From NCBI GenBank assembly GCA_964393205.1, contig CAYMSV010000001.1, positions 5,841-69,840 of the forward strand: DNA of 64,000 bases, given 5' to 3'. Below the pieces are notes generated by a model that saw only the letters and a program-made list of their open reading frames with translations, was not told where the DNA came from and searched no databases. The position numbers were made by a program, and so were the translations under genes. The stretch is from an uncultured Pseudomonadales bacterium (GTDB lineage: Bacteria; Patescibacteriota; Microgenomatia; UBA1400; PJMF01). The number at the start of each line of letters is the position of its first letter. Within the stretch, counting starts at the first letter, position 1. Shown piece after piece: positions 1 to 14,494 of this stretch.

Positions 1-2
1 AA

Positions 3-404
3 AAGTTTGATGAGTCGCTCTCTCCAGAGGAGTTTAATAGTCCAAGATTTGCTTATCGGGTGATCTACACACAAAAAGTTGTTAACCATCCGGGTCAGGC
101 TGACCGTGTAATTGAGTTCATTGATCCCAAATCAGAAGCGGCTAAAAAAATAAACGTGACCTACGCATCAATTAAAGAGAAGGAAAAAACAAAATATAGA
201 GCAAGTACAATAGTCTCTAAAATACAAAGTGAGGGGTATCCGAAATTTAAGATGTATTCACATACGAAACTTTGGAAAAAGAATGATGGAAAGAACCCGA
301 GCAAAGGTTTTGGTGTGTCTGTAGAGGGTTATTGGTATTGGTACGAAAGCTGGTTAGATTTTGTTAGACAATATTGTAAGAAAAATAAACGAAAACTAAT
401 TTAA
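3..404 (+). CDS. 3' part of an ORF that runs off the 5' window edge; product unknown
   Basis: Frame is open from nt 3 with no stop before the GTG at 60 that the ORF track used as start; no recognisable motif; sits immediately upstream of hsdR. Confidence 0.3.
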   Translation, partial: KFDESLSPEEFNSPRFAYRVIYTQKVVNHPGQADRVIEFIDPKSEAAKKINVTYASIKEKEKTKYRASTIVSKIQSEGYPKFKMYSHTKLWKKNDGKNPSKGFGVSVEGYWYWYESWLDFVRQYCKKNKRKLI

Positions 405-416
405 TAAAGAGTAACT

Positions 417-3353
417 ATGAAATTCAACGAACAATACACAGTCGAAAACCACATTATAAAATTTTTATCCAAAACACTTGGCTATGAATTCATCAAGCCA
501 GAGGAGTTTGCTCTTTTGCGTGAGCTGGAAAACCAGTATTTAGTTATTCCCCATCTTGCTGAAGCGATAAAGCAAATCAATGATTTGACTGATGATACTG
601 AAATACAAAGCGTCGTTAGGGAGGTAAAAAAGATTGATTCTAACGAGGGTTTTTTGAACCTATTGCGTAATGGAGTGAACATTAAGGATCCCACGACAGG
701 CAGAATGAGGGACTATGCGGTTGTTGACCATGACAATATTGAGAATAACCGCTTCGTAGTTACTAATCAGTTTTATTTTGAAGGTAACCTGGAAAATATC
801 AGAACTGATGTGATGATCTTTTTGAACGGTATCCCGGTGGTAGATATTGAAGCTAAAAGCCCCACCGCTTCCACTAGTGTCAGTTATGAGAATGCGATAG
901 GTCAAATCAAACGCTATGAGCGAGTAGCAATGAAGCTTTTTTGGCCAAACTTATTTAACATTGCGACCGATGGTCTCAAGACTGTCTATGGAACAACCTA
1001 TGCCCCAGAGCAGTACTTCTTGCAGTGGAGAGATGAAGAACTAGAAGAAAAGCTCGATGGGCAACTTGAGATGACTTTGGTGGCTTTGCTAGACAAAGAA
1101 AGATTACTGGACATCATCAAAAACTTTATATTATTCGAGCAGACAAAAGATGGGCGCATTAAAAAGATGGCTCGTTACCAGCAACTAAGGGCTACCAATA
1201 AGATTTTGGAGAGAGTCCAGGATGGTGAGAAAAGACGAGGTTTAATTTGGCATACCCAAGGATCTGGTAAATCGCTGACGATGTTTTTTACTGCTTGGAA
1301 GCTGAGGTTTTCCAAGGAATTGAAGAATCCTAAGGTGTTTGTTTTGGTAGATCGGATTGATCTTGATGATCAGATTTATGACACATTCGTTAACGCTGGC
1401 GGTAGAAATGTTATCCGTGTGACTTCGAGGCGTGATCTTGAGAAGAAAGTTACCAATGATGAACGAGGTATCTTCATCTCAACGATTGAGAAATTCAATG
1501 AATTGCCACTTGGTTTGGAGAATCCTACTGAAAATGTGATTGTGCTTTCTGACGAGGCGCATAGAACCAATGAAGGTGTGGCAGCGATTAAGCTGCGTGA
1601 CTCTATGGGAAAAGCCTTTTTCTTTGGCTTTACAGGTACTCCAATCGATAAAACAACACTTAATACTCACAGAAACTTTGGCCAAGAAGGCGAACGGTAT
1701 CTTGACTATTACTCTATTCAACAAGCCATAGATGATGGAGCAACTCTGCCAGTGACTTATGAGGCTCGATTATCGAAGTTTTTCATAGATGAGGATCGAG
1801 TGGACCAACAGTTTGACGAGATGACCACAGAGTTATCTGAAGAACAAAAACAACTAGTGATGAAGCGCTTTGGTAAAAAGGAAGCCCTGATTAAATTAGA
1901 CAAACGAATGCGAGCTGTTGCACAGGATATCGTAGATCATTATCGACTTTATATTGAGCCAAATGGTTTTAAAGCACAGATAGTCTGTTATGACAGAGAA
2001 TCGACAGCTAGGTATAAAGAGTTGTTTGATGAATTGATTCCCCCTGAGTGGTCAGAAGTAGTTTATTCTTCTGGCGATCCCAACTTAGATAAGGAGCACT
2101 TGAGGAAATATAACACCACTAAGGCTCAAAGAGAGCAAATTATTGAATCATTTAAAGACTCCAATAGTTCTCTCAAGTTGCTCTTAGTATGTGACATGTT
2201 GTTGACAGGATTTGATGCTCCAATTGAACAAGCTATGTATTTGGATAAACCATTGCGAGATCATAATCTTTTGCAAGCCATCGCCAGAACTAACCGTACC
2301 TATCCAAACAAGGGTTGCGGCAAGATTATTGATTACTATGGAATTACTAGAAATCTTTATGATGCTTTGAATTTTGATGAGAGCATTATCGACTCAGCCA
2401 TGATTGATTTGGATCACCTAAAACAAGAATTCCTTGAAGTACTAGGTGAGATTAAGGATATCTTCACTGGCATCAACCAAGAAGACCCCTCTATTGAGAA
2501 TTTAAGAACTTGTCTCAAGATTTTTATAGACAACGAAGGCAAACAGCGATACTTCACTGATAAGTACTCCAGATTAAAGCTCTTGTTTGAAGTCCTTTCT
2601 CCTGATCCTTTCTTAGCTCAATATATTAGAACTTTTGAATGGATTACCAGTGTTTACATTGCTTTTATCAACGAGTTCCGCTCTGAAAATCTGGCAATGG
2701 AAGCTTTTAGGGATGGTAGCATTCCTACCTTTGGTGAATATGGTCAGAAAGTTAAAAAATTAATCCAAGATAATCTAGATTATGAAGGAATCACCAAGAG
2801 TTTTAGAGAGCTTAATATCAATGATATCTACACACTGGAGCGGCTAGACAAAATGGATGATGAGGAAAAAGCTCTCAATCTTGAAAAGATGCTCAAGCAG
2901 GAAATTTCTATTAATATCGATACCAACCCTGTGTTTCAGAAGTTTAGTGAGAGATTGACCGCTATTCGCAAAGAGTTTGAACAGCATCAAATTGACCTCT
3001 CTGAGAGGATTAAACGTTATTACGATTTAATGAATGACATTAAGAGCAAATCTGATGAGGCAAAAGAATTGGGCTTAAACTTGCGAGAGTACGGACTTCT
3101 GGTTATCTCTCAAGAGTTCTTACCTGATACAGACCAAGCTATTGTTATCTCTCTTTCCAGAGACTTAGCAAAAAGGCTAGAAGCCATCCTCGACGAAGGT
3201 TGGCAAAATTCATCAAAACGAGAGGAGTTTTTGAAAGGTGTCAAACAAACGATTCAGGAACTAATCCTGAAAGAATACAGGGATAGAATTCAAGTCAAAG
3301 ATTTTCCTAAATTCTTAAACAGATTGGTTGATATCGTAATCAAAAAATTCTAA
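417..3353 (+). CDS. hsdR: Type I restriction enzyme R subunit (HsdR), SF2 helicase/endonuclease
   Basis: 978 aa; Walker A HTQGSGKSLTMF, DEAH box VLSDEAHRTNEG, HsdR-like length and domain order; ATG at 417. Confidence 0.85.
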   Translation: MKFNEQYTVENHIIKFLSKTLGYEFIKPEEFALLRELENQYLVIPHLAEAIKQINDLTDDTEIQSVVREVKKIDSNEGFLNLLRNGVNIKDPTTGRMRDYAVVDHDNIENNRFVVTNQFYFEGNLENIRTDVMIFLNGIPVVDIEAKSPTASTSVSYENAIGQIKRYERVAMKLFWPNLFNIATDGLKTVYGTTYAPEQYFLQWRDEELEEKLDGQLEMTLVALLDKERLLDIIKNFILFEQTKDGRIKKMARYQQLRATNKILERVQDGEKRRGLIWHTQGSGKSLTMFFTAWKLRFSKELKNPKVFVLVDRIDLDDQIYDTFVNAGGRNVIRVTSRRDLEKKVTNDERGIFISTIEKFNELPLGLENPTENVIVLSDEAHRTNEGVAAIKLRDSMGKAFFFGFTGTPIDKTTLNTHRNFGQEGERYLDYYSIQQAIDDGATLPVTYEARLSKFFIDEDRVDQQFDEMTTELSEEQKQLVMKRFGKKEALIKLDKRMRAVAQDIVDHYRLYIEPNGFKAQIVCYDRESTARYKELFDELIPPEWSEVVYSSGDPNLDKEHLRKYNTTKAQREQIIESFKDSNSSLKLLLVCDMLLTGFDAPIEQAMYLDKPLRDHNLLQAIARTNRTYPNKGCGKIIDYYGITRNLYDALNFDESIIDSAMIDLDHLKQEFLEVLGEIKDIFTGINQEDPSIENLRTCLKIFIDNEGKQRYFTDKYSRLKLLFEVLSPDPFLAQYIRTFEWITSVYIAFINEFRSENLAMEAFRDGSIPTFGEYGQKVKKLIQDNLDYEGITKSFRELNINDIYTLERLDKMDDEEKALNLEKMLKQEISINIDTNPVFQKFSERLTAIRKEFEQHQIDLSERIKRYYDLMNDIKSKSDEAKELGLNLREYGLLVISQEFLPDTDQAIVISLSRDLAKRLEAILDEGWQNSSKREEFLKGVKQTIQELILKEYRDRIQVKDFPKFLNRLVDIVIKKF

Positions 3354-3925
3354 TGAAGAAGCAAATAAGCCTACACAACAAAGTTGTTGATTACTCTGTC
3401 CGCAGGAGCAACAGGGCAAAACGGATGAGGTTGGCTGTATATTGCGATGGTAATTTCGTGGTTACTGTTCCAAAAGATTTTCCTGCAAACTCAATTGACA
3501 GGTATCTAATAGAAAAATCTAAGTGGGTAGTTAGCAAACTGGATTTTTTTGAAAAACTTAACAAGAAGCAAAAATTGTCTCTGGGCGATGATGGGTTCGT
3601 GATCTACAAGGATAAAGCCTTGAAAATGGTTACTGAGAGGTTATTAGAACTTAATAATGAGCATTATGGATTTAAGTTTAATAAAATTGCCATTAAAAAT
3701 CAGAAGACACGCTGGGGAAGTTGTTCCAAAAAAAGAAACCTTAACTTCAATTATAAAATCCTATTTTTATCTCCCAAGATGCGGGACTACATTATTATCC
3801 ATGAACTATGTCACTTGAGAGAGTTTAATCATTCTAATAAGTTTTGGCGATTAGTGGCTAAAGCTATCCCTAACTATGCTGATATTGTTGAAGAGTTAAA
3901 GTTAAAAGGATTGATGATTGATTGA
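3353..3925 (+). CDS. DUF45/YgjP-family zinc-dependent hydrolase (type I R-M associated)
   Basis: RWGSCS motif plus HELCHLREFNHSNKFW (HExxH...H...FW) typical of DUF45; start overlaps hsdR stop by 1 nt (TAATG). Confidence 0.75.
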   Translation: MKKQISLHNKVVDYSVRRSNRAKRMRLAVYCDGNFVVTVPKDFPANSIDRYLIEKSKWVVSKLDFFEKLNKKQKLSLGDDGFVIYKDKALKMVTERLLELNNEHYGFKFNKIAIKNQKTRWGSCSKKRNLNFNYKILFLSPKMRDYIIIHELCHLREFNHSNKFWRLVAKAIPNYADIVEELKLKGLMID

Positions 3926-3930
3926 TTTTT

Positions 3931-4539
3931 ATGAATATGCCTACTCCAAGAAAGATGAACCACGGTGTAAAAATCTCTCATAAGGGTTTCAGTGTGACTG
4001 ACCTTGATAAAGAGCGATCAGTTAAGGCTATTAATAAAAAGGTCCTGCCGCATTTATTATCTAGCCTAGCCCTTCCTTACCTTCTTGGGGCAAAAACTCA
4101 AGTAGAAAGATATATATTTGCGGCCTTGCAGCTCAAAACTCAACCATCAATAGCCACAATGGGATGTCTACATGAAGCATCAACTTTATTTGAAGACTTA
4201 AACACGGTGATTATTTATATGAGGAAATGTGGCAAGGACCACAAACTTCATCAGTTATGGACGGATATTCGTAATCACATTCGACACGCGGTCAGAGAGG
4301 AATTTGATAGAGAGGACGACTCAGTAAAAAATGAGAGAGCCCAAAGATTAAGCCTCGACCCAAAACTTCAGATAGGTATTGGATTTGATACAGACGCGAT
4401 AAAAGTAGGAGGGACTCTTGTAGAGCTGTCCGAGATAAATAAGTATCTAGCTTGGGCTGAGGGCGTTATTGCAGATATTTTAGTCAAAGCAAGTGAAGAC
4501 GGCTTCATTGAAGGTATCAGGGTAGTTAAGAAACCATAA
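3931..4539 (+). CDS. hypothetical protein, last gene of hsdR-DUF45 operon
   Basis: ORF track 3922..4539 begins at TTG; first ATG at 3931; soluble, no recognisable motif; 6 nt after DUF45 stop. Confidence 0.4.
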   Translation: MNMPTPRKMNHGVKISHKGFSVTDLDKERSVKAINKKVLPHLLSSLALPYLLGAKTQVERYIFAALQLKTQPSIATMGCLHEASTLFEDLNTVIIYMRKCGKDHKLHQLWTDIRNHIRHAVREEFDREDDSVKNERAQRLSLDPKLQIGIGFDTDAIKVGGTLVELSEINKYLAWAEGVIADILVKASEDGFIEGIRVVKKP

Positions 4540-4556
4540 TCGAGATAAAGGAATCT

Positions 4557-4583
4557 GTTGACATCTCCGATTCTGATGTCAAC
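4557..4583. promoter_or_regulatory. inverted repeat GTTGACATC-N9-GATGTCAAC; a third GTTGACAT copy at 4598-4605
   Basis: Perfect 9-bp arms read directly from sequence in the 269-bp gap after the R-M operon; TTGACA cores could be -35 boxes or operator half-sites. Confidence 0.4.
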
Positions 4584-4619
4584 AAAACCGTTAAAAAGTT
4601 GACATTTGCTTTCACTGTT

Positions 4620-4641
4620 GTAGAAATCTATTCACTTCCTT
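4620..4641. repeat. 22-bp direct repeat copy 1 (gtagaaatctaYtcacttcYtt)
   Basis: 20/22 identity with 5858..5879; the two copies bracket the membrane-protein/XRE/HEAT cassette. Confidence 0.6.
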
Positions 4642-4759
4642 CACCGTCCACTCTGGATATTCCAGCTCGCTGACCCAATCAATTCGTCCAAATTCATACC
4701 ATTTCTCGAGTTTTTTAATCGGGGTAGTGGGTGAAATGATTTCTGAAAATCGGTTTTAA

Positions 4760-4802
4760 AATGTAATATATTATTGACATAATGTAAATAATATATTACA
4801 TT
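4760..4802. promoter_or_regulatory. 43-bp perfect palindrome (16-bp arms aatgtaatatattatt / aataatatattacatt) around TTGACAtaATGTaa; candidate operator/promoter of the membrane-protein/XRE operon
   Basis: Arms are exact reverse complements; centre holds a consensus TTGACA; ends 6 nt before the ATG at 4809. Confidence 0.45.
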
Positions 4803-4808
4803 ACACTT

Positions 4809-5231
4809 ATGAACATAAAAACATACCAACAAATTCGCATTGCAGTTACTTTTTTTGTCGGACTGTTAGTATCTATTTCAGTCGTCCGTGATAGTTTCTT
4901 ACTGGCTCTTGCTGGTGTTTTAACTGGTCTAGTCTTTGTGTTCCTGGTGCGAGCCAAAGCCAAAATCAAAACTGATGAAAGAGAACAAACGATTCAAGAA
5001 AAGGCTGCTCGCCTAACCTATGCTATTTTTGCTCCCACCATTGGAATTGTCGCATTGCTGTTACTTTTGCCATCCAAAGGTGGCTTTGCTGTTTTTAGCA
5101 AAGGCGAATGGTTGTATCTAGAGTCGCTGGGGATGATTTTTGCGTACCTGTCTTTATTTTTGATTGCTGTGTACGCCATCTCTTATCACTTTTTTAATAA
5201 GAGATATACAGGTGGAAGTGATGAAAAATAA
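4809..5231 (+). CDS. small 4-TM membrane protein (DUF2178-like), partner of the XRE regulator
   Basis: 140 aa with four hydrophobic helices; stop overlaps the HTH gene start by 11 nt, the usual membrane-protein/XRE pair arrangement. Confidence 0.5.
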   Translation: MNIKTYQQIRIAVTFFVGLLVSISVVRDSFLLALAGVLTGLVFVFLVRAKAKIKTDEREQTIQEKAARLTYAIFAPTIGIVALLLLLPSKGGFAVFSKGEWLYLESLGMIFAYLSLFLIAVYAISYHFFNKRYTGGSDEK

Positions 5232-5430
5232 ACTAAAAGTCTATCGAGCAATGTACGACTTGACTCAAGAACAACTAGCAGAACAAATTGGCGTTAGTCG
5301 GCAAACTGTCATTGCCATTGAGGCAGATAAATATCTGCCCTCGCTGGGTTTGGCTTTCAAAATGGCTCGGCATTTCCGAGTTAAAGTAGAAGATATTTTT
5401 ATTTATGAAGGAGATGAAAATGACAACTAA
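5221..5430 (+). CDS. XRE-family (Cro/C1-type) helix-turn-helix transcriptional regulator
   Basis: MKNKLKVYRAMYDLTQEQLAEQIGVSRQTVIAIE is a canonical HTH_3; true start ATG 5221 (track start 5164 lies inside the upstream gene). Confidence 0.8.
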   Translation: MKNKLKVYRAMYDLTQEQLAEQIGVSRQTVIAIEADKYLPSLGLAFKMARHFRVKVEDIFIYEGDENDN

Positions 5431-5821
5431 CACCATAAAAGAAAAAGTATTATATGTATTGGCTATCGGGATCAGTATCTTTTTGTTGTTTGTTTTTATA
5501 ACCAGTGTATGGATTGGCCATGAGGCCAAAAATCTGTGTCAACAGGCTCAATGGCAGTATGGTGGTAATTGCACAGAGGCTCTCATTAGCCAGTTGGATG
5601 ATCAACACCAAGCCTACCGCAGACGCAATCATGCCATCTGGGCTCTAGGGCAATTGGGAGATGGTCGCGCCCTGCCTGTTTTAGAAAAATACTACACTGG
5701 CGACATTCCCAACAGGGAACCGCTTGATGAAACAATTAGCCAGTATGAGTTAAAAAAAGCGATTAACTTAGTAAATGGGGAAACCAATATCTCTGCTTGG
5801 ATTTGGAGAAACTTGTTGTGA
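5420..5821 (+). CDS. membrane-anchored HEAT/PBS-lyase repeat protein
   Basis: N-terminal TM helix; AIWALGQLGDGRALPVLEKYY HEAT-like repeat; AAGGAG RBS 7 nt before ATG 5420; overlaps XRE stop. Confidence 0.55.
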   Translation: MTTNTIKEKVLYVLAIGISIFLLFVFITSVWIGHEAKNLCQQAQWQYGGNCTEALISQLDDQHQAYRRRNHAIWALGQLGDGRALPVLEKYYTGDIPNREPLDETISQYELKKAINLVNGETNISAWIWRNLL

Positions 5822-5857
5822 TCGACATCAAATTGGGAGATAGATAAGCTCAAGAGC

Positions 5858-5879
5858 GTAGAAATCTACTCACTTCTTT
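5858..5879. repeat. 22-bp direct repeat copy 2
   Basis: gtagaaatctactcacttcttt, 20/22 identical to 4620..4641. Confidence 0.6.
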
Positions 5880-6129
5880 AGCAGTTCATTTCGGGTATTT
5901 AAGATAAGTCAGCCAAGCAATGTGTCGGAAAATCTCCCGTCCCTCGAGCTACGCATCATTTACTCAAACCGAATTTCTTTTTTCCAATTAGTGATTAAAG
6001 TTGTTTAATGATTTATCATCTCTCAATTTATCTTGTTCTTCATTCAAAGTTACATCCTCCAGATCTTCTATTCTAGAGATTAGTTCATTTTGCCTATCTT
6101 CATCCATGTGTTAATTATATAATTAGCCT

Positions 6130-7632
6130 ATGACCATTTCCAAATCCGACTACATGCTTTTTTTACGCCACTCGGCTTGGTTGTGGCTCAAAAAATACCA
6201 GCCAGAGCGCCTTCCTCAACCCGATGCCAATCTCCAAGCCATTTTTGACACTGGTCACCGCTTTGAAGCCTATGCTGAACAGCTCTTTAATGGTGCGGTT
6301 AAACTTGGTTTTACTGGCTATGAGCAGTATTTGAGTTTGCCAGCCAAGACTCAAGCCTTGCTTGATCAGTACACCCCAGTTATTTTGCAGGGTAGGCTAG
6401 AGGTCGATGGTTTAACCTGTATATTTGATGTCTTAGAGCGTGTTGACGAACACATCCTTAATCTCATCGAAATTAAATCTAGCACTAAGGCTAAGAGCGA
6501 GCATTTTTATGATTTAGCTTTCCAAGCGCTGATTCTGGAGCGCTCGGGTTGGCAAATTAATGAAATTAGTGTCTTACATGTTAATAATGACTATGTTCGC
6601 CAAGGAGAAATTGATCCGGCACAACTGACTGGTCGCACTGAGGTCACTGAGGAGGTCAAAGCTCTGCTGCCGGCCACCAAAGAGCTGGTTGAGCAGGCTT
6701 GGGCAGTAGTTAAGAGAGAGCAAGTGCCCTCTTTTTCACCTACCTTAGTCAATCAAGTAGGGGTGAAAGATGTTGGCTGGTTTAAGGACTGGTTGGGGAT
6801 TTATAAAGACTTACATCCAGATCTGGATTCCTCCAGTATTTATCATTTAGCTGGGCTCAATAGCAAGTTATTAAGCGAACTGGACGAGCAGGGGATTGAG
6901 CTGCTGGCAGATATTCCTATGGCTACAAAACTTAATTCCAAACAAGTAGCTCAAATTCAGGCCACCTGCAGTGGGGAGCGGCTGATAAATCAGCCAGCAA
7001 TTAAGGAATTTCTACAGTCACTACAGTATCCCTTATATTTTTTTGATTATGAAACCCTCAGTTCTGCCATTCCTTTTTTTGATGGCATGAAACCTTATCA
7101 GGATTATCCCTTTCAGTACTCCTTGCATGTTTTAAGGGCGCCCGATGCCAAACTAGAGCACCTTGAGTATTTGCACTCCACAAACAGCAATCCCATGCCC
7201 GAATTAATCGCGAAGTTAAAGAGCGATCTTGGTGAGCAGGGCAGTATTTTGGCTTGGAATAAGGTTTATGAAGAGAAATGCAATAATACGATGGCCGAGC
7301 TTTATCCAGAGGAAGCTGAGTTTTTACAGCAAGTTAATGAGCGCTTAGTAGATTTAATGTTGGTATTTCAACAGTTATATTTTGTCGATAAAGATTTTAA
7401 AGGCAGTGCTAGTTTGAAAAGTGTTTTGCCAGTTTTAGCGCCCGATTGCAGTTACAGCGATCTGAATGTTTCCGATGGATTATTGGCTAGAAGACTGTGG
7501 ACAAACACTATTTTGCTTAGTCAAAATGAGGCGGAGAAAGAAGCCATTCTAAAAGATCTGAGTGCATATTGTACTCTAGATACCTTTGGCATGGTGCGGA
7601 TTTTTGAGGAGTTGGGGAAGGTGGTGGGGTAA
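6130..7632 (+). CDS. DUF2779-like protein with N-terminal PD-(D/E)XK (RecB/Cas4-like) nuclease motifs
   Basis: GHRFEAY ... IFDVLERV ... LIEIKSS ... YDLAFQALIL matches motifs I-IV of the PD-(D/E)XK fold; C-terminal YFFDYETLSSAIPF...PFQYSLHVL resembles DUF2779; TATATAAT 15 nt upstream. Confidence 0.55.
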   Translation: MTISKSDYMLFLRHSAWLWLKKYQPERLPQPDANLQAIFDTGHRFEAYAEQLFNGAVKLGFTGYEQYLSLPAKTQALLDQYTPVILQGRLEVDGLTCIFDVLERVDEHILNLIEIKSSTKAKSEHFYDLAFQALILERSGWQINEISVLHVNNDYVRQGEIDPAQLTGRTEVTEEVKALLPATKELVEQAWAVVKREQVPSFSPTLVNQVGVKDVGWFKDWLGIYKDLHPDLDSSSIYHLAGLNSKLLSELDEQGIELLADIPMATKLNSKQVAQIQATCSGERLINQPAIKEFLQSLQYPLYFFDYETLSSAIPFFDGMKPYQDYPFQYSLHVLRAPDAKLEHLEYLHSTNSNPMPELIAKLKSDLGEQGSILAWNKVYEEKCNNTMAELYPEEAEFLQQVNERLVDLMLVFQQLYFVDKDFKGSASLKSVLPVLAPDCSYSDLNVSDGLLARRLWTNTILLSQNEAEKEAILKDLSAYCTLDTFGMVRIFEELGKVVG

Positions 7633-7751
7633 GCTTGTTATTTTTCAAATTTTTGGATAGTCAAACAATTTTTTTGGTTCTTCCTATCACACAAACATAA
7701 AATTAACATAAAATTTTCCCAAACATTTGCTCTCGTGTTACACTAAACCTA

Positions 7752-8690
7752 GTGTTCAAATTTAATTCTGCTTTGATCATTCACGCCCTTCTGCTTTCTC
7801 TTTTTGTTTTAGTTATCTTTGTTTATTGGTTTGCGATTTTACCTCGTGAGCAAATTTTTCTTTATGGGCATATGGGTTATGGTCCGCTGTCAGCCTTTAC
7901 TATTTCTCGACACTGGATGACGGGTTTGGTGATTGGGGAAATGCTTTTAGTTATTTATTTGCCACTCAATTTAATTTTAAAGAAGTTTTTTAAAGGTTAT
8001 CAGCTTCCTGATTGGAAAAATTTAAGTTACTATCTCTGTCTTTATCTTTTTTTACCACTTTTTTTGCTCTTAACTGTTTTTGCTAAGCCAACTTTGCCTT
8101 TTTTACTTAGTTTATGGGTGTTTGTTATCTTATTTTTAGTTCTGCGCTTGGCCCTCTACTTAACTCACTTGGCTTTCAATAATTTCAAACACTTTATTTG
8201 GTTAACTATAGATGCGCTTTCACTATTGCCGGTATTGATGATCGTGCCAACCTTAATTCAATATGGTCTACAGCGCTCTTTTCCGCTCTTTCCTTTATTA
8301 GTCTTACCACCTTTGGTAGCAGCAGCTTTGAGTTTAATTTGGTTTACTATTATTACTTGGCTCTCTAAGCGCTTTCAGCGTCCCATGCCTAGTTCACTGC
8401 AGCTTTTCTTATCTGCGCTGGAGAGTGCTTATCTCTTCTTCCCCTTCTTGCACTATTTTATTTCTAATCCCAGTGGCACTCTGTATATTACTAATGGTGA
8501 TAATTTTTTTGCCAGCAATCCACTGATTCAGTTAGGAACTTTTGTCCTGGTTTTAGTTTTGCTAAAAATATTTATGAGACGCCGCGGGCAAGAGAGCAGT
8601 GATGATTTTACTGCCACGCTCAAATTATTTTTACTCTTAGCTGTTTTAGTGATTGTCAATTTTATTTTGCGCCAGTTTTTAGTAGTGTGA
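7752..8690 (+). CDS. polytopic membrane protein, unknown function
   Basis: 312 aa, at least 8 hydrophobic segments, GTG start, about 32% GC. Confidence 0.45.
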   Translation: MFKFNSALIIHALLLSLFVLVIFVYWFAILPREQIFLYGHMGYGPLSAFTISRHWMTGLVIGEMLLVIYLPLNLILKKFFKGYQLPDWKNLSYYLCLYLFLPLFLLLTVFAKPTLPFLLSLWVFVILFLVLRLALYLTHLAFNNFKHFIWLTIDALSLLPVLMIVPTLIQYGLQRSFPLFPLLVLPPLVAAALSLIWFTIITWLSKRFQRPMPSSLQLFLSALESAYLFFPFLHYFISNPSGTLYITNGDNFFASNPLIQLGTFVLVLVLLKIFMRRRGQESSDDFTATLKLFLLLAVLVIVNFILRQFLVV

Positions 8691-8714
8691 TTTTTTCTCA
8701 AGTACTTGTCTTTA

Positions 8715-8723
8715 TGATATAAT
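8715..8723 (+). promoter_or_regulatory. extended -10 promoter TGaTATAAT
   Basis: TGnTATAAT match 37 nt upstream of the ATG at 8760. Confidence 0.4.
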
Positions 8724-8759
8724 ATACTCGAGTATTTTCCTGCCCCCTTGAAAGTAATT

Positions 8760-9470
8760 ATGGCAGTTAGTCTTCATGGTCGAGAAGTTAGCGCTGCTGT
8801 TTTTGATTTTGATCAAACCCTCTATCGATGTAATGGAGAAGCTGAAGAACATATGTGGGGTGATTTGCGACGTAAATTAGTAACAGACCCCAATGTTTTA
8901 GCCAAACAAAAAATTGTCAATCCAGACGAAGAAACGATAAAAAATCTAGTAAAAACCTATGTTGAACTAGCTCAAGAAATAAGTTGGAAGCCGGCGTTTT
9001 TAGCCATGGGTGGTAATGAAAAAGACTATCTTGAAATTACTTCATCTTTATCTATAGCTGATTATTTATCTTATGATCCAGAGTTAGTAAAACTCTTGAG
9101 TATGTTAATACAGCATCTACCAGTACATATTTTTACTGGATCAACCAGAGGGCGAGTTTTTGATGCTTTAGAAGTACTGCTAGGAAGTTTAAGTGATCAA
9201 TTTTTATATAAAAAAGTTTTAGCAGTTGATGATATGAAAAAAGGGACCAAGCCTGATTTAGCAGCTTATCAAGAGATGTTGGAGAGATTTAGACTCGAAC
9301 CCCAATCAACGATCTTTGTTGACGACCAAATAGCCGAAGTAGAAGCAGCTGCTAGCTTAGGAATAATTACTTTTTTAATTAGGGAGCAGGGCGAGGACGA
9401 TGAGGCAATTAATCCTCATATTCTTATTAATTCAGTTTTAGATTTAACAAAATATTTGGAAATCAAATGA
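8760..9470 (+). CDS. HAD-superfamily hydrolase
   Basis: DxD motif VFDFDQTL, later FVDDQ; ATG at 8760 (track start 8748 is TTG). Confidence 0.65.
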   Translation: MAVSLHGREVSAAVFDFDQTLYRCNGEAEEHMWGDLRRKLVTDPNVLAKQKIVNPDEETIKNLVKTYVELAQEISWKPAFLAMGGNEKDYLEITSSLSIADYLSYDPELVKLLSMLIQHLPVHIFTGSTRGRVFDALEVLLGSLSDQFLYKKVLAVDDMKKGTKPDLAAYQEMLERFRLEPQSTIFVDDQIAEVEAAASLGIITFLIREQGEDDEAINPHILINSVLDLTKYLEIK

Positions 9471-9484
9471 GCGATTGTTTCATT

Positions 9485-9493
9485 TGCTACAAT
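9485..9493 (+). promoter_or_regulatory. extended -10 promoter TGcTACAAT, 9 nt before ATG (leaderless-type)
   Basis: Exact TGnTACAAT, the same motif recurs before ychF and small ORF 10960. Confidence 0.45.
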
Positions 9494-9502
9494 GATTAAG
9501 CT

Positions 9503-10612
9503 ATGAAAAAATTTTTAATTACTTTTTTATTAATAATTGCTTTGATCGGAGGCTATCTTTGGTTTAACTCAACAGACCAAGAAGAACCGATGCTTTTACC
9601 AAGTGTTAATGACGATGTGACTACAACAGAGGACCAGTTAGAATCACCACTGTTGATAGCTGAAGGTTTAGAAGTGCCCTGGGCACTAGCTTTTTTGCCT
9701 GATGGAGATATTTTATTAACGGAGCGTGAGGGTCGGGTTAGATTAGTTGCTGATGAAGTTTTGCAAGAAGAACCAGTGCTTGTGCTTGATCAGGTGGAAG
9801 CAATTGGCGAGGGTGGTTTATTAGGAATTACCATTCATCCTCAATTTAGTGATAACTCTTTTGTTTATCTTTATTACACTTATCGCAGAGATGAGACTTT
9901 GACTAATCGAGTGGTGAGAATGACTTATCAAAATGGCAAGTTAAGTGATGAAGAAATCATTATCGACAACATTCCTGGAGACAACATTCACAACGGTGGT
10001 CGGCTTAAATTTGGACCGGATGACTATTTATATATAACTACTGGTGATGCCGCTAATGCCGATTTAGCTCAGGATACTAATTCTTTAGCTGGTAAAATCT
10101 TGCGAGTGAACGATGAGGGAGAGGCAGTAGCGGACAATCCTTTTGATAATTTGGTTTATTCTTATGGTCACCGTAATCCTCAAGGTTTAGCTTGGGACAG
10201 TGCTGGTCAATTGTGGGCCACTGAACATGGTCCTTCTGCTCAAGATGAAATTAATTTGATTGAAATGGGAAAAAATTACGGTTGGCCGATTATTACCGGA
10301 GACGATGAGGCAAAGGACATGGAAACAGCTCAACTCCAATCTGGTACTGGTGATACTTGGGCGCCTTCGGGTTTAGCCTTTGTTAATGACTTACTCTTTT
10401 TTGGCGGTTTGCGTGGGCAGGCCTTGCATCAAGTAAAACTAGGTCAGGAATTAAGTCTTGAAAAACATTTTGCCGGCCCTTTTGGACGGATTCGAGCAGT
10501 AGTCACCGGCCCAGATGGTTGGTTATACATTGCTACTAGCAACCGAGATGGTCGGGGTAATCCTAGCACTCAAGATGATCGTTTAATTAAAATTGATCCA
10601 AATAGCCTTTAA
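9503..10612 (+). CDS. PQQ-dependent soluble sugar (glucose/sorbosone) dehydrogenase, beta-propeller, secreted
   Basis: Signal/TM N-terminus; motifs VPWALAFLPDG, GLLGITIHP, HNGGRLKFGPDDYLYITTGD, HRNPQGLAWD, GKNYGWP match the SGDH family. Confidence 0.75.
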   Translation: MKKFLITFLLIIALIGGYLWFNSTDQEEPMLLPSVNDDVTTTEDQLESPLLIAEGLEVPWALAFLPDGDILLTEREGRVRLVADEVLQEEPVLVLDQVEAIGEGGLLGITIHPQFSDNSFVYLYYTYRRDETLTNRVVRMTYQNGKLSDEEIIIDNIPGDNIHNGGRLKFGPDDYLYITTGDAANADLAQDTNSLAGKILRVNDEGEAVADNPFDNLVYSYGHRNPQGLAWDSAGQLWATEHGPSAQDEINLIEMGKNYGWPIITGDDEAKDMETAQLQSGTGDTWAPSGLAFVNDLLFFGGLRGQALHQVKLGQELSLEKHFAGPFGRIRAVVTGPDGWLYIATSNRDGRGNPSTQDDRLIKIDPNSL

Positions 10613-10699
10613 TTTTTATAAAAACAAATAATTTTCGAGATTGATTGGCGTGTTATACTATCAGATTAATTATTTATTTAATAAATAAGGGAGTTAACA

Positions 10700-10903
10700 A
10701 TGTTAGCTACGAGCAGATCAAAAGAATTGTTTAGAAAATATGGGGTTGATTCATCTCTTGTTTCGGCGCTAGACACAGAGCAAGATCAAAATAAAAGAGA
10801 CGAACTACAAGATCAGATCTCAAAAATTCTTTGTGCAGCTTTGCTCAGTTTTCGAGTAGATAAAGAAGACATAGCGGAAGTTAAAAAAATTGCTAATTTT
10901 TAA
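10700..10903 (+). CDS. small hypothetical protein (67 aa)
   Basis: Own TGtTATACT extended -10 element upstream; no homology recognised. Confidence 0.3.
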   Translation: MLATSRSKELFRKYGVDSSLVSALDTEQDQNKRDELQDQISKILCAALLSFRVDKEDIAEVKKIANF

Positions 10904-10941
10904 ATTAACCATAAATTTCAATCGGGCCTGATGATCTATTG

Positions 10942-10950
10942 TGATACAAT
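10942..10950 (+). promoter_or_regulatory. extended -10 promoter TGaTACAAT, 9 nt before ATG 10960
   Basis: Exact TGnTACAAT. Confidence 0.4.
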
Positions 10951-10959
10951 AACCAACAT

Positions 10960-11181
10960 ATGACACCAGAAAAAGGACGCAAACTTAATAAATCTGAAGT
11001 TAAAAAGCCAGAATTAGTTGAAGTGTTGGCCAGTGAAATTTACAATTCAATTATCAAAATTGGCCAAAAACAAGGCCTAACCCTAGCTGATTCTGAATTT
11101 GTCGATAAAGTTTTTTGGGCTTTGACCAAGGCCAAACTTCGCATTTACAATGAATCAAATAAGCTCGAGCAAAACGATTAA
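10960..11181 (+). CDS. small hypothetical protein (73 aa)
   Basis: ORF with its own leaderless-type promoter; no homology recognised. Confidence 0.3.
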   Translation: MTPEKGRKLNKSEVKKPELVEVLASEIYNSIIKIGQKQGLTLADSEFVDKVFWALTKAKLRIYNESNKLEQND

Positions 11182-11284
11182 GCCTTAGTTACTTAGTTTC
11201 TCAATAAAAAAAATTGCTTGAAAGAAAAATAGCTTCTTTTCGGTATTACAGTTAGATAATAATTGTAAACAGAAAGGAGGTAAA

Positions 11285-11671
11285 ATGTTAAAAAAGCAAG
11301 TAATTTCCCTAGGAATAGTAAGTTTATTGACTGCCGGAGTTTTTTTACTCCCCAATGTAGTCAATGCTTATCGTGGTGATCCTAGTATTGAGGGTCCCAA
11401 CCACACTGATGAACGACACGAAGCCATGACCAATGCTTTTGCCAATAATGATTATTCAGCTTGGCAAGAACTGATGAATGGTAAGGGTCGAGTAGCGGAA
11501 GTGGTCAACGAAGGTAATTTTGCTAGATTCGCCGAAGCTCATCAATTAGCCCAAGAAGGTAAGATTGAAGAAGCTAAGCAAATTAGAGCAGAATTAGGTT
11601 TAGGACTTGGTAATGGTGCTGGTAAAGATCAGGATCGGGGTCAAGGACAGATGAATCGTCGCAATCGCTAA
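11285..11671 (+). CDS. small secreted protein with Gly/Asp/Gln-rich tail, upstream of ECF sigma
   Basis: Signal peptide MLKKQVISLGIVSLLTAGVFLLPNVVNA; strong AAAGGAGGT RBS 5 nt before ATG; followed by a terminator. Confidence 0.5.
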   Translation: MLKKQVISLGIVSLLTAGVFLLPNVVNAYRGDPSIEGPNHTDERHEAMTNAFANNDYSAWQELMNGKGRVAEVVNEGNFARFAEAHQLAQEGKIEEAKQIRAELGLGLGNGAGKDQDRGQGQMNRRNR

Positions 11672-11686
11672 ACGATTTTTTCAAAA

Positions 11687-11718
11687 AAGCCCTCTTAAAT
11701 TTTTAAGTGGGCTTTTTT
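11687..11718 (+). terminator. rho-independent terminator
   Basis: 12-bp stem AAGCCCTCTTAA/TTAAGTGGGCTT with one mismatch, 4-nt loop, then TTTTTT. Confidence 0.55.
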
Positions 11719-11768
11719 AGCTTTTAGTAAAATTAAAAAGATACATTATTTTATATTCAAATGGGCTT

Positions 11769-11774
11769 TATAAT
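11769..11774 (+). promoter_or_regulatory. -10 TATAAT for the ECF sigma gene
   Basis: TATAAT 17 nt before ATG 11792; weak TTATTT -35 at 17-nt spacing. Confidence 0.35.
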
Positions 11775-11791
11775 AGTTTTTGTTAATAGTT

Positions 11792-12340
11792 ATGCGAAAT
11801 TATAAGAAGTTGAGTGATGAGCAACTGGTGAGCTTGGTCAGAAAGCAAGATCAAGAACTTTATCGTTATTTGATTGATCGCTATCAAGCTAAACTCTTGC
11901 GTTATGCCCTTTATTTAACGGCTGACGATGATCAAGCTGCAGATGTAGTACAAGAAGCTTTTATTAAGGCTTTTGTTAATCTTCAGTCTTTTAACAGCAA
12001 AAAAAAGTTTAGTAGCTGGCTATATCGGATTACTCACAATGAGGCGATGAACATACTCAATCGCCATAAACAAGAGTTACCAATACTCAAAGACATTGAT
12101 TTTGCCAGTGATATCGATTTGGAAGATGATTTTATTAAAAAAGAACTAGAAGGTCGCGCCCAACGATGTTTGGCGCAAATGCCGGTGATTTATAAAGAAG
12201 TTTTAACTCTTTATTATTTGGAAGAACAATCTTATGAAGAAATTAGTGATATTTTACGAATAGCGATTGGTACGGTGGGTACTAGACTTAATCGAGCCAA
12301 AATATTAATGAAAAAACTATGTCAAAAACAAAAAAAGTAA
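11792..12340 (+). CDS. ECF-subfamily RNA polymerase sigma factor (sigma-70 regions 2 and 4)
   Basis: Region 2 LVQEAFIKAFVNLQSF...SWLYRITHNEAMN, region 4 LTLYYLEEQSYEEISDILRIAIGTVGTRLNRAK; ATG 11792 (track start 11780 is TTG). Confidence 0.85.
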   Translation: MRNYKKLSDEQLVSLVRKQDQELYRYLIDRYQAKLLRYALYLTADDDQAADVVQEAFIKAFVNLQSFNSKKKFSSWLYRITHNEAMNILNRHKQELPILKDIDFASDIDLEDDFIKKELEGRAQRCLAQMPVIYKEVLTLYYLEEQSYEEISDILRIAIGTVGTRLNRAKILMKKLCQKQKK

Positions 12341-12990
12341 GAACAAAGAAAAAAACAGAGCAAAAATCAATCGATCTTAGTCAAGAGATTATGACTAAGG
12401 TGAAGGCTGGTGAAATTAACATGAAACCCAGATGGTATTTTGTTTTAGGTTCTAGTTTGCTGTTTTTAGCTTTGGTAACTTTAATTGTTCTGGCGGTTTT
12501 TTTATTTAATGTCAGTTTGTTTGTTTTACGTCGTCAGGGACCAATGCGTTTATGGCGTTTAGAAATGCTTCTTAGTAATTTGCCACTATGGATACCAATT
12601 TTAGCTATTTTAACCCTGTGGGGTGGAATTAAATTATTAAAAAAATATGACTTTTCTTACAAAAATAATTTCTTGCTGATTATTATTACTTTTGTGATAG
12701 CCATTATTGCAGCTGCCTGGGCAATTGATAGTTTAGGACTCAATGAATTTTGGTCAAGAAAAGAACCCATGAGGCGCTTTTACCAAAATTTAGACCCGAA
12801 TTTTGAAGGCAAAAACTTTGGAAATAAGCCTGGAACTGGCAAGTCCGAGCCTGGCAGTGGCAAGTCTGAACCTGGAATTGGCAAGTCCGAGCCTTGGCAG
12901 TGGCAAACGCTTTTAATCAAACTTATTCAAGCTCGGTCACTGGAGCGACAGCATCCACTTTCCACTCAGCATTTTCTTCAATTAAGGTGA
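12319..12990 (+). CDS. polytopic membrane protein co-transcribed with the ECF sigma (candidate anti-sigma); C-terminal PG(S/T)GKSEPG x3 repeat
   Basis: Overlaps sigma gene by 22 nt; 3 TM helices; 21-bp coding tandem repeat at 12826..12900; 3' end overlaps convergent gene so the true stop is uncertain. Confidence 0.45.
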   Translation: MSKTKKVRTKKKTEQKSIDLSQEIMTKVKAGEINMKPRWYFVLGSSLLFLALVTLIVLAVFLFNVSLFVLRRQGPMRLWRLEMLLSNLPLWIPILAILTLWGGIKLLKKYDFSYKNNFLLIIITFVIAIIAAAWAIDSLGLNEFWSRKEPMRRFYQNLDPNFEGKNFGNKPGTGKSEPGSGKSEPGIGKSEPWQWQTLLIKLIQARSLERQHPLSTQHFLQLR

Positions 12991-13483
12991 TGGCTCTTAG
13001 TGTGCGACCTCCTGAATAATTAAGTCCAACAGTGAGGATGGCGCTACCATCTTCTGCTAAAGCCAAATCTTCCACACTGACTCCTTGATCTGGCATATCT
13101 TGTACACCAACAAACATGGCTAAATCACGAGACAAAGTTTCTTGATTAATATTTGCTTGGGCTCCACTGGATAGGGCTTGATAAGCACGATTGGCCGCTG
13201 CTTCATCCATGCTTGGAGGACCAACTTCAATAAAATCTAAGACAAATTGAAAGCCAGCTCTTTCAGCTTCTTCGGCTTTTTGACTCAATTCATCATCCAT
13301 TATCATTTCGTCTTCAAGATCTGCTGACTCCTCCTCAGGAACAGGCAAAGATTCCTCTTCGAGCACATCAGTGACTTTTGGACTCATAAAACCAGAACCC
13401 AAATTAAACCAGGCTAGGGCGACAACGATAGCGATAATGGCCAAAATTATTAAGATAATAAGACCTGTATTTTGTTTTTTCAT
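12923..13483 (-). CDS. membrane-anchored/secreted acidic protein, unknown function
   Basis: N-terminal TM helix then Glu/Asp-rich region; upstream gene of the two-gene minus-strand unit with the M50 protease. Confidence 0.45.
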   Translation of the reverse strand: MKKQNTGLIILIILAIIAIVVALAWFNLGSGFMSPKVTDVLEEESLPVPEEESADLEDEMIMDDELSQKAEEAERAGFQFVLDFIEVGPPSMDEAAANRAYQALSSGAQANINQETLSRDLAMFVGVQDMPDQGVSVEDLALAEDGSAILTVGLNYSGGRTLRAITLIEENAEWKVDAVAPVTELE

Positions 13484-13550
13484 AATAAATACAATATATC
13501 AAAGAAAGTTTCTTAAGCAAAGTGGATTTGAATCAAGACCAAACCAGAAA

Positions 13551-14177
13551 TTAAATCAACCAATTAGTTAAAAGGTTAATAATTGGTCCGAGCAATTGCA
13601 CTACAGCCGATTGACCACTAAAAATTGGCAAAATCATAAACAATAAAATAAATTGACCATAACGTTCCATGACCGCTTCGTATTCATAGCTAGTTTCTTT
13701 GGGCAAAATAGCTCTCATAATTTTACCTCCATCAAGAGGATAAACGGGTAGAAGATTAAATAAGGCTAGGGCAAGATTAATATAAATTAAAAATTCAGCA
13801 AAAACCGCAATGAGACTACCACCAAAAAAACGAGTCAAAAGTGCTAATAAAAGAGCAATAATAATATTGGTTAAAGGCCCGGCAGCAGCAATAATAGCGG
13901 TGTCGCGTACTGGCGATTTTAGGTTGTAAGGATCATAAGGGGCGGCCTTACCCCAGCCAAAACCAGTTAATATGATCAATAAAGTGCCCAAGGGATCTAG
14001 ATGAGCTCGTGGATCGAGAGTGAGGCGACCTTTTATTCGCGGAGTTGGATCTCCCAATTTATCAGTGACGTAACAATGAGCTGCTTCGTGAAAACTAATT
14101 GACAGCAATAAGCCAATTAAGATTAAGAAAAAAGCGATTGGGCTACTAAACAACAAACTTATTAGCATGTGTTCCAT
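13551..14177 (-). CDS. site-2 protease family zinc metalloprotease (peptidase M50, no PDZ)
   Basis: HEAAHCYV HExxH in a TM helix, second-site LPVYPLDGG (LDG) motif, 208 aa polytopic. Confidence 0.8.
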   Translation of the reverse strand: MEHMLISLLFSSPIAFFLILIGLLLSISFHEAAHCYVTDKLGDPTPRIKGRLTLDPRAHLDPLGTLLIILTGFGWGKAAPYDPYNLKSPVRDTAIIAAAGPLTNIIIALLLALLTRFFGGSLIAVFAEFLIYINLALALFNLLPVYPLDGGKIMRAILPKETSYEYEAVMERYGQFILLFMILPIFSGQSAVVQLLGPIINLLTNWLI

Positions 14178-14263
14178 TCTACTACATATAGCAAATGATA
14201 AAAGTTTTATTTTAATCAGGAGATAATTGCAGAAAAGCCTTGCGCGTGTTAGAATTCCTTCTT

Positions 14264-14494
14264 ATGAAAAGAGCAAAAGTTAGTGACTTAATTAAAAAAT
14301 TACCACGAGCATCTCATACTGGTAATAATGTTTCTCACGCCAAGAATCGTACTAAGCGCAAGTTCAAATATAACTTACACGCAGTAACTGTCATTTTGGA
14401 TGGGGAAAAGAAAAAGATTAAGGTTCCAACAAGTCAACTCAGACAACTCAAAAAAGCTGGTTTAACTACTCATTATAAAAAACCCAGCGAATAA
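14264..14494 (+). CDS. rpmB: 50S ribosomal protein L28
   Basis: SHTGNNVSHAKNRTKRKFKYNLH matches the bL28 signature; ATG 14264 (track start 14240 is TTG). Confidence 0.8.
   Translation: MKRAKVSDLIKKLPRASHTGNNVSHAKNRTKRKFKYNLHAVTVILDGEKKKIKVPTSQLRQLKKAGLTTHYKKPSE

Follow-up and report, generated by a model that had tools for sequence, protein, structure and literature searches.

A predicted nine-gene type I restriction-modification operon, probably lodged in a variable defence slot beside a DUF2779 nuclease gene, in an uncultured Patescibacteria bacterium

The DNA considered here, referred to below as the window, is a stretch of 64,000 nucleotides (nt) from contig CAYMSV010000001.1 of an uncultured bacterium of the Patescibacteria (Candidate Phyla Radiation, CPR; assembly GCA_964393205.1, positions 5,841 to 69,840). 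It opens in the middle of what its gene content identifies as a complete type I restriction-modification (R-M) operon of nine genes and 10.3 kb, whose activity is predicted from those genes. It is likely that this operon was acquired horizontally and, together with a small module of DUF2178, XRE and HEAT-repeat genes, occupies a variable defence slot in the chromosome, with the DUF2779 double-nuclease gene as a resident of the flank. The kind of locus, a type I R-M operon with embedded candidate defence genes in a chromosomal hotspot, is already known; some of the candidate genes are new. The original prediction, made on the window alone, had treated positions 1-7650 as a single unit, in place of which a composite was found, comprising the R-M operon (10.3 kb), a separate 1.2-kb module and then resident genes.

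The type I operon across the window edge

Inside the window, hsdR (417..3353, plus strand) codes for a type I restriction subunit of 978 amino acids (aa), recognized by Pfam and PADLOC matches and by motifs in its translation. The protein combines a PD-(D/E)XK nuclease at its N-terminus with an SF2 (DEAD/ResIII) motor and, at the C-terminus, an assembly domain (Pfam HSDR_N, E 1.4e-35; SWI2_SNF2, 6.8e-70; T1R_D3, 6.8e-22; T1RH_C, 1.3e-10; PADLOC REase_I, E 5e-132), and its nuclease D...ExK (VVDIEAK), Walker A (GSGKS) and DEAH motifs are intact. It had been described as an orphan, and a tblastn search found no hsdM or hsdS within the 64-kb window. An exact look-up of the HsdR protein matched 15 contigs. 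Two of these, L001 and L003, match window 1-13353 with 100% identity, L001 reaching 9,584 bases further upstream. hsdR is not an orphan, because hsdM and hsdS stand directly beyond the 5' edge on these identical contigs, 1.8-5.7 kb upstream and in the same operon, so that the cognate HsdM and HsdS of a type I system are present. The orphan was an artefact of the window edge, and the accompanying guess that the two genes might lie beyond it was borne out. Of two things named in advance as speaking against the original prediction, hsdM and hsdS just upstream and synteny conserved across relatives, the first was found and the second was not. A gene that looks like an orphan at the edge of a window is best extended before it is interpreted; here the headline becomes an ordinary complete type I operon.

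The upstream genes all lie on the hsdR strand with gaps of at most 12 nt on L001, and the order of the operon is hsdM with a MerR-type helix-turn-helix (HTH), DinD/Bro-N, DUF2321, hsdS, a gene for 277 aa, DUF3644, hsdR, YgjP and a gene for 202 aa. hsdM (L001 4259-5953), to whose product the HTH is fused N-terminally, matches N6_Mtase at 6.5e-109 and HsdM_N at 4.5e-26, and the gene that follows it matches the NCBIfam DinD equivalog and the PADLOC model PDC-S13 (9e-113). DUF2321, coding for a zinc-ribbon protein (L001 6758-7093, i.e., 2.5-2.8 kb beyond the 5' edge of the window), is situated between the DinD slot and hsdS, and hsdS itself (L001 7096-8163) codes for two recognition domains, with Methylase_S matching in two stretches (1.2e-46). 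An uncharacterised 277-aa protein, belonging to an unannotated, CPR-restricted family, is encoded between hsdS and the DUF3644 gene; the latter, complete at L001 9005-9988 (327 aa), lies between hsdS and hsdR. The truncated open reading frame (ORF) that had been left without a name at the 5' edge was rightly seen as truncated and can now be named as the end of this gene: its last 134 codons (1..404, plus strand) match PADLOC PDC-S19 with E 3.9e-43 and the complete protein with 6.3e-154 (Pfam DUF3644, E 2.8e-56), and the identical contigs carry the whole gene. The genes matching PDC-S13 and PDC-S19 are both embedded between hsdM and hsdR.

Type I systems methylate the host site as M2S, and as R2M2S they translocate and cut unmodified DNA. 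By analogy, HsdM and HsdS would methylate the host site and the full HsdR complex would cut unmodified DNA, and the three swappable embedded genes would, following the PrrC/HEC paradigm, serve as second-line effectors. By definition, the PDC models represent genes nested inside type I R-M, BREX or DISARM loci, and anti-phage activity, dependent on the Rx4-6H histidine, was demonstrated for one DUF3644 protein, HEC-08 (both in bioRxiv 10.1101/2024.01.29.577857); DUF3644 has been counted among the HEPN families, with occurrences in R-M operons (PMC3710099). The operon shares with type I R-M operons carrying embedded defence genes (PrrC, the HEC/PDC genes of Payne et al. 2024, PADLOC) the hsdM/hsdS/hsdR frame with nested extra genes, two of which match PADLOC candidates defined by such embedding. 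It differs from them in having three separate embedded slots and two trailing genes, in the swapping of the slots while the backbone is kept (as seen from the second operon copy described below), in the DUF2321, 277-aa and 202-aa proteins, which are without a PADLOC entry, and in its CPR host; moreover, it is known from its genes alone. DUF2321 is a conserved member of the backbone, with a weak PHROG match to a Lar-like restriction alleviation protein (E 0.005).

Ahead of hsdM (L001 4130-4260), a TTGACA-17-TATTAT promoter-like site was noted along with the palindromes AACTGTACGCAAAAACCGGACAGTT and TCAAGGAATTCTTGA, all of them conserved in the second operon copy, L114; the palindromes could serve as operators for the MerR-type HTH that is joined to HsdM. 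At two other CPR loci, L030 and L032, the HTH is encoded by a separate gene of 59-60 aa ahead of hsdM.

hsdR is followed by the gene for a YgjP/DUF45 SprT-like zinc metallopeptidase of 190 aa (3353..3925, plus strand) and by the 202-aa gene, the last of the operon (3931..4539, plus strand). The ORF listing and profile searches place the three as the original prediction had them, and the translational coupling proposed for hsdR and YgjP is seen in the overlap of the hsdR stop with the YgjP start (TAATG at 3353). The YgjP protein matches PF01863 with E 2.9e-41 (142.2 bits vs a cut-off of 26), and its HExxH zinc site is intact (HELCH in the translation), as is characteristic of the family. A search of plasmids for YgjP matched 534 plasmid records, of which 355 were of Klebsiella (one inspected), and in 3 of the 4 plasmid matches examined a YgjP-like gene comes after hsdR. 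On a Klebsiella IncFIB plasmid and on Synechocystis pSYSX the YgjP start overlaps the hsdR stop as it does in the window, and embedded genes are present in both loci, although the window protein is only 24-26% identical to these two. On a Methylobacter plasmid, known from a table row only, the YgjP match runs into the annotated hsdR, and the closest plasmid match, that of Lachnospira eligens (33%), is not linked to R-M. The pairing of hsdR with YgjP, as far as gene order can tell, is recurrent across phyla; it is an arrangement already seen and not a novel module, so that the proposal of hsdR and DUF45 as an uncharacterised module gives way to the same coupling in Klebsiella and Synechocystis plasmids. 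Literature searches on a role of YgjP/DUF45 in type I restriction gave nothing usable; from its SprT/WLM-like fold and the known phenomenon of restriction alleviation, YgjP would control or clear HsdR proteolytically.

The unannotated 202-aa gene starts 5 nt after YgjP. Its product has about 100 homologues, all unannotated and mostly from CPR bins, and a profile search of 1.84 billion protein representatives gave 81 matches to the family, which had no match in Pfam (40 members searched), in a PDB profile search or in PHROGs. The distant homologues occur alone or in other islands, and the fixed link to hsdR and YgjP is found only in the closest operon, L114. The invariant residues are C79, H81, E82, S84, E88, D89 and the motif R114-N-H-I-R-H119 (RNHIRH, invariant or nearly so in 40 sequences), and the AlphaFold model (pLDDT 87.8, pTM 0.82) is mostly helical with a small sheet.

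The protein may, tentatively, be an RNase of the HEPN superfamily acting as a back-up effector of the abortive-infection or toxin type, like PrrC, RloC and DUF3644. R114-N-H-I-R-H119 has the Rx4-6H form of the HEPN motif, R being followed, as is usual there, by a polar residue; the helix before it bears other invariant residues, acidic ones and histidines; helices predominate in the confident model; and the family is found both as the closing gene of the operon and as a lone gene in other islands, in the manner of mobile single-gene effectors. In addition, the top hhalign alignment, itself non-significant, puts RNHIRH in register with RHEIEH of the operon's own DUF3644 protein. Nevertheless, none of the comparisons with HEPN families or structures reached significance: hhalign of the family against the HEPN proteins of the loci (DUF3644, Ymh) gave a probability of 0.15%, Foldseek of the model against the PDB a best E of 1.3 with HEPN entries in the noise only, and a search of BFVD no better than E 0.04, with an unnamed protein, Pfam and the PDB profile search being likewise silent. 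The motif is placed in the middle of a helix followed by a small beta-sheet, which is atypical of HEPN, and a metal-dependent hydrolase or a regulator would account just as well for so many invariant H, E, D and C residues. Within the operon, the protein would be an effector of an RNase-type or other hydrolytic kind.

A 59%-identical homologue of the 202-aa protein was seen in a different island (L005 5396-11561, on a 1.2-Mb contig), comprising LexA-like, Dam, HNH and DUF8370/DUF8371 genes and several unannotated large genes. A giant protein of 2111 aa matching the 202-aa profile is an RTX repeat protein and was rejected as a low-complexity artefact. Another giant, P0156 (3527 aa), contains the profile in 14 stretches (E 1.3e-24), its Pfam match being to a beta-eliminating lyase only; possibly an artefact of read-through or of a recoded stop, it was set aside.

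Probable acquisition of the operon and the variable slot

The same nine-gene architecture is present in L114 (GCA_020632235.1, GC 41.6%), where the closest long-contig homologue of the 202-aa protein is found. The identity of the backbone proteins is high (HsdM 96%, DUF2321 93%, HsdR 95.5%, YgjP 96%, 202-aa protein 82%), while that of HsdS is only 54% and the three embedded positions are taken by unrelated proteins, namely a different Bro-N protein, one of 281 aa and a membrane-like one of 256 aa. At the nucleotide level, homology extends from L001 4015 to 14294 (= window 4710) at 85-87% identity. The comparison shows what reads as recent horizontal transfer combined with cassette swapping; two copies that share one backbone and have three slots swapped illustrate neatly how cassettes are exchanged within an R-M system in nature, and the slot comparison nominates the DUF2321, 277-aa and 202-aa proteins as candidates.

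The base composition of the block agrees with an origin elsewhere. In the remainder of the window, the G+C content at third codon positions (GC3) of 48 genes is 0.270 +/- 0.030, with a maximum of 0.331, as against 0.416 in hsdM, 0.440 in DinD, 0.397 in hsdR, 0.393 in YgjP and 0.360 in the 202-aa gene. The raised stretch (0.35-0.45) begins with hsdM, which lies 5.3 kb outside the 5' edge, and ends at window 8690, background values being seen in the genes upstream of hsdM and from a HAD gene onward; the GC3 of the backbone is similar to that of L114's own genes. The raised G+C content reported for the 4.8-7.6 kb region holds on measurement (0.411 over 4800-7650, against 0.360 +/- 0.017 and a maximum of 0.389 in equal-sized windows elsewhere), the neighbouring membrane-protein gene has 36.4% and not the claimed 32% or so, and the anomaly is wider than had been stated, running from hsdM to 8690. 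That the block is accessory, of defence type and horizontally acquired is upheld by its anomalous GC3, by the operon backbone in a metagenome-assembled genome of different G+C content and by cargo that differs between strains.

The last point comes from a sister haplotype, L016, found through a look-up of the HAD protein, which is identical in the two. L016 is 99.7% identical to window 6023 to 19488, and blastn places the homology breakpoint at window 6023. To the left of it, L016 (1-3419) comprises an hsdS fragment, a DUF4268 gene (PDC-S11, 2.8e-120) and, on the opposite strand, a reverse transcriptase (RT) gene with an HTH gene, a retron-VI-like pair (RT_VI, 2.4e-28; HTH_VI, 7.7e-14). L016 and L004, a contig of the R-M haplotype, come from the same sample (ERZ27252308), and it appears that this uncultured CPR population has two defence haplotypes side by side at a single chromosomal site. 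Because the DUF2178-XRE-HEAT module is replaced in the sister haplotype to the left of 6023, it is variable cargo as well. The retron-VI-like pair is present in L016 only, at the position of that module, and is absent from the window; the XRE protein of the window and the HTH protein of L016 share a generic HTH (39% identity over 33 residues), and their being the same protein was ruled out, the likeness being that of the generic HTH alone.

The breakpoint falls inside a small acidic ORF, of the form MDxxRQDEL...IDELDWERG, which lies divergently upstream of DUF2779 in genus-level relatives. It is intact at 52 aa in L016 (3347-3505, minus strand) and in two relatives, L028 (8796-8954, minus strand) and L029 (3711-3869, minus strand); by comparison with them the window copy (5988..6107, minus strand, divergent from DUF2779) diverges beyond codon 28, the cassette junction cutting it at codon 29, and has a length of only 39 aa. 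In L028 and L029, whose DUF2779 proteins are 69-70% identical to that of the window, the order acidic ORF, DUF2779, a gene for 312 aa ... M50 peptidase, L28, fmt is kept, and homologues of the 312-aa protein, 65-75% identical, occupy the same position in L028, L029, L034 and L035. On the left, L028 has a homologue of a small gene situated 6.7 kb beyond the 5' edge of the window. The cargo between the flanks comprises genes for a 1506-aa protein, a MazG-like protein and an SLFN-type helicase in L028 and for a DUF5655 protein in L029, so that related genomes have conserved flanks with differing, mostly defence-type cargo, as in a hotspot. The defence slot, as delimited by these comparisons, probably measures about 12.7 kb; it would begin some 6.7 kb before the 5' edge of the window and end at window 6023, window 1-6023 being its right-hand two thirds.

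These boundaries bear on the idea with which the analysis began, that a solitary HsdR together with DUF45, an uncharacterised protein and DUF2779 forms a methyltransferase-independent anti-phage module in one higher-GC island. The lack of hsdM and hsdS inside the 64 kb, the tight coupling of the genes and the raised G+C content spoke for it. It has become extremely improbable, since hsdM and hsdS belong to the same operon on identical contigs, the same complete operon occurs in L114 with no DUF2779 nearby, and DUF2779 stands outside the segment that varies between strains.

Chromosomal defence hotspots flanked by core genes are known from Pseudomonas, Escherichia and Vibrio. An acquired operon and module in a variable slot fits them in its conserved flanks with different defence cargo in co-occurring strains and related genera. 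It departs from them in that no integrase or att sites were found and the only repeat brackets a small inner cassette, and in that the anchor family, DUF2779, adjoins R-M systems across several CPR classes.

DUF2779 and the R-M systems upstream of it

The presence of a DUF2779 gene was confirmed at 6130..7632 (plus strand), coding for a double nuclease of 500 aa, identified by Pfam (PF11074, E 4.5e-39, 134 bits vs a cut-off of 23.3, with weak Cas4 matches), by invariant columns and by its model. The N-terminal part is a Cas4-like PD-(D/E)XK domain with D100, E114 and K116 of D...ExK invariant in 20 sequences, and the C-terminal part a DEDDy 3'-5' exonuclease with D306, E308, D408, Y480 and D484 invariant in the same number, i.e., both sets of catalytic residues of a double nuclease are there. 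The model (pLDDT 85.3) has Cas4 4r5q as its best PDB match (E 5.5e-4), followed by weaker ones to Cas4-Cas1 7mi4, Exo5, ACE1 (an Argonaute-associated Cas4-family protein), AdnAB and RNase T (E 0.04). It is not a Cas4 proper: the four-cysteine iron-sulphur (Fe-S) cluster is not conserved, C97 alone being invariant in the N-terminal domain, and the Pfam Cas_Cas4 score of 16.8 is below the cut-off of 22.7. No cas genes were found in any locus read, and to our knowledge Patescibacteria mostly lack CRISPR. In Patescibacteria the family gives more than 1,200 matches at 53-58% identity, across classes.

PF11074 has been grouped with 3'-5' exonucleases, its nuclease partner being DUF83 (PMC3985635). 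One family member, MMSYN1_0389, is quasi-essential for JCVI-syn3.0 and has been presented as a fusion of Cas4-like and DEDD parts whose role is unknown (PMC13621843); with MMSYN1_0389/UU173 the window protein shares the Cas4-like PD-(D/E)XK domain and the DEDD-type exonuclease domain of the tyrosine variant. Compared with Cas4 and solo-Cas4, DUF2779 here is without the conserved four-cysteine cluster and without a CRISPR context, while adjacency to R-M is common to it and the solo-Cas4 of DPANN archaea.

The original prediction counted DUF2779 as cargo of the island, and its G+C content might suggest the same. Recent acquisition as the cause was rejected, as the GC3 of DUF2779 is 0.44-0.45 in its syntenic orthologues of L028 and L029 too; the high value is a property of the gene, because it is equally high in relatives. 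DUF2779 lies on the conserved side of the breakpoint at 6023 and is syntenic in relatives with the 312-aa gene and M50/L28/fmt. DUF2779 and the adjoining 312-aa gene (7752..8690, plus strand), coding for a multi-pass membrane protein, are on this evidence the conserved right flank, resident genes and not island cargo.

Upstream of DUF2779, R-M genes are a recurrent sight in CPR genomes. Among 10 loci read by hand, which were chosen by length and not at random, co-oriented R-M genes stand directly upstream in 8. They are of type I in the window; of type I, with the retron-like pair, in L016; type IIG with a UvrD-type helicase (GajB-like) and a Ymh HEPN protein in L011; type IIG with an OLD-family ATPase and DUF2130 in L013; MerR, hsdM, hsdS, SduA_C and hsdR in L030; PLD-SNF2 with a type IIG-like gene in L031; MerR, hsdM, hsdS and hsdR in L032, with GmrSD downstream; and type IIG in L033. 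The two others have no R-M gene in this position: in L028 it is taken by the MazG-like gene and SLFN-type helicase, and in L029 by DUF5655. In an unselected metagenome sample (80 loci, duplicates removed, with an R-M marker sought within 6.5 kb), a marker was found upstream of DUF2779 in 17 of 37 loci vs downstream in 2 of 40 (Fisher p 3.4e-5), and 20 of the 21 upstream R-M ORFs are co-oriented with DUF2779. The Pfam families of the three nearest upstream ORFs are led by ResIII (11), SWI2_SNF2 (8), Eco57I (8), N6_Mtase (7), HSDR_N (5), GmrSD_N (5) and Methylase_S (4); downstream, histidyl-tRNA synthetase, thioredoxin/DsbA and other housekeeping families are found. In the literature searched there was no paper describing the adjacency of R-M to DUF2779 or a systematic upstream association in CPR. 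This direction-specific association gives a testable lead to the function of a widely conserved, uncharacterised nuclease family.

One explanation would make DUF2779 the working partner of whichever R-M system precedes it: with a Cas4-like activity in the 5'-3' direction and a DEDDy activity in the 3'-5' direction, it would degrade or process restricted ends in a RecBCD/AddAB-like manner. R-M and DUF2779 would then form a functional unit, and the original prediction would have done well to count the nuclease in. The co-oriented R-M genes directly upstream in many CPR lineages and the strong asymmetry between the two sides are what such a partnership would predict, as are gaps of at most 25 nt or overlaps (19 nt in L030, 18 nt in L032, 4 nt in L031, 22 nt in L013, 5 nt in both L043 and L098, and an overlap in L033), even if the compactness of CPR genomes makes short gaps a weak sign of coupling. 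Both active sites of DUF2779 are invariant, ACE1 is among its structural matches, and the solo-Cas4 found adjacent to R-M systems in DPANN archaea was read as a defence link (PMC5704561). Against a partnership, the upstream R-M systems are of unrelated families and types (I, IIG, PLD-SNF2, GmrSD) and some neighbours are not R-M at all; in the window the 1.6 kb between the operon and DUF2779 are filled by another cassette, decayed remnants and a divergent ORF; five more distant loci (L086, L087, L100, L109 and L112, with DUF2779 47-50% identical) have dnaG-rpoD upstream, a housekeeping context; and the quasi-essentiality of the JCVI-syn3.0 member points to housekeeping DNA metabolism. Furthermore, three HsdR proteins adjacent to DUF2779 are 27-28% identical to one another as compared with 54-65% for their DUF2779 proteins, and therefore the R-M systems were not co-inherited with DUF2779. 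A working partnership is a serious rival but on balance the less likely, and the favoured reading of these gene neighbourhoods is that the 5' side of DUF2779 would be a long-lived docking site beside a resident gene. A broader proposal, in which DUF2779 is the generic downstream partner of whatever R-M system is installed, its 5' side a lineage-wide docking site, and the operon adds a 202-aa RNHIRH effector family and a DUF2321 zinc-ribbon restriction regulator, is distinctly doubtful.

Several observations weigh against the acquired operon and module in a slot flanked by a resident DUF2779. The GC3 of DUF2779 (z 5.7) and of the 312-aa gene (z 3.0) is raised with respect to the window and, taken alone, would fit acquisition. 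In L030 (10582-11922) and L032 (9516-17459) DUF2779 lies between the R-M system and a serine recombinase, and in some lineages it may travel on mobile or integrative elements. The share of loci with R-M upstream is 46% in the unselected sample and not 100%, and the left flank of the slot is marked by a single homologue, that of L028. No recombinase family was found among the genes called on L001 and no att-like repeat beyond chance between the two ends of the R-M block, which leaves the mechanism of transfer and insertion without an integrase mark; there is also no tRNA gene or Rfam RNA over the 22.9-kb contig. The integrase, att target and end repeats of an integrase-borne genomic island are thus missing. 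Finally, the roles of the embedded genes, YgjP and the 202-aa protein are read from position and family.

As a side observation, L032 alone also has GmrSD and a primase-polymerase downstream of DUF2779. The acidic ORF is found directly downstream of DUF2779 in L060 (11511-11651, plus strand) and L056. From its position, the acidic 52-aa protein could be a partner or inhibitor of the DUF2779 nuclease.

The inner cassette and its repeats

The module between the operon and DUF2779, 1.2 kb in size and absent from L016, has at its core three overlapping genes (4809-5821), all on the plus strand and recognized by Pfam: a DUF2178 membrane protein gene (4809-5231), an XRE HTH gene (5224-5430) and a gene for a membrane-anchored protein with weak HEAT repeats (5405-5821). 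It had been described as a repeat-flanked cassette, and a real direct repeat is present on both sides, at 4620-4641 and 5858-5879 (20 of 22 positions identical, 0 matches being expected in shuffles), with a diverged extension of about 90 nt. Each copy represents the 3' end of a minus-strand gene that has decayed. The first lies in a start-less remnant (4609..4750, minus strand), the translation of which ends ...LEKWYEFGRIDWVSELEYPEWTVKEVNRFLQQ, also given as ...YPEWTVKEVNRFLQQ, and the second in a more decayed remnant (5850..5950, minus strand) with the translation ...YLKYPK*TAKEVSRFLRS*. Derivation of the remnants from the 187-aa or 61-aa genes that stand beside the acidic ORF in relatives was considered and, on comparison, dismissed.

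Remnant copy 1 is within the block shared with L114, whose version of the remnant (92% nucleotide identity over 77 nt) adjoins an IS3-family transposase, and from these alignments the remnant at 4609..4750 is taken as the mark of the right end of the transferred R-M block. The arrangement suggests two successive insertions, each bringing or keeping a copy of the decayed gene end.

Between the first remnant and the module lies a near-perfect palindrome of 43 nt (4760..4802), found by repeat search, with 21-nt arms that are 95% complementary. It overlaps a TTGACA-17-TACATT promoter-like site, detected in a promoter scan, and ends 6 nt ahead of the start codon of DUF2178. By its position the palindrome is a candidate operator for the XRE repressor, and the module is probably self-repressed.

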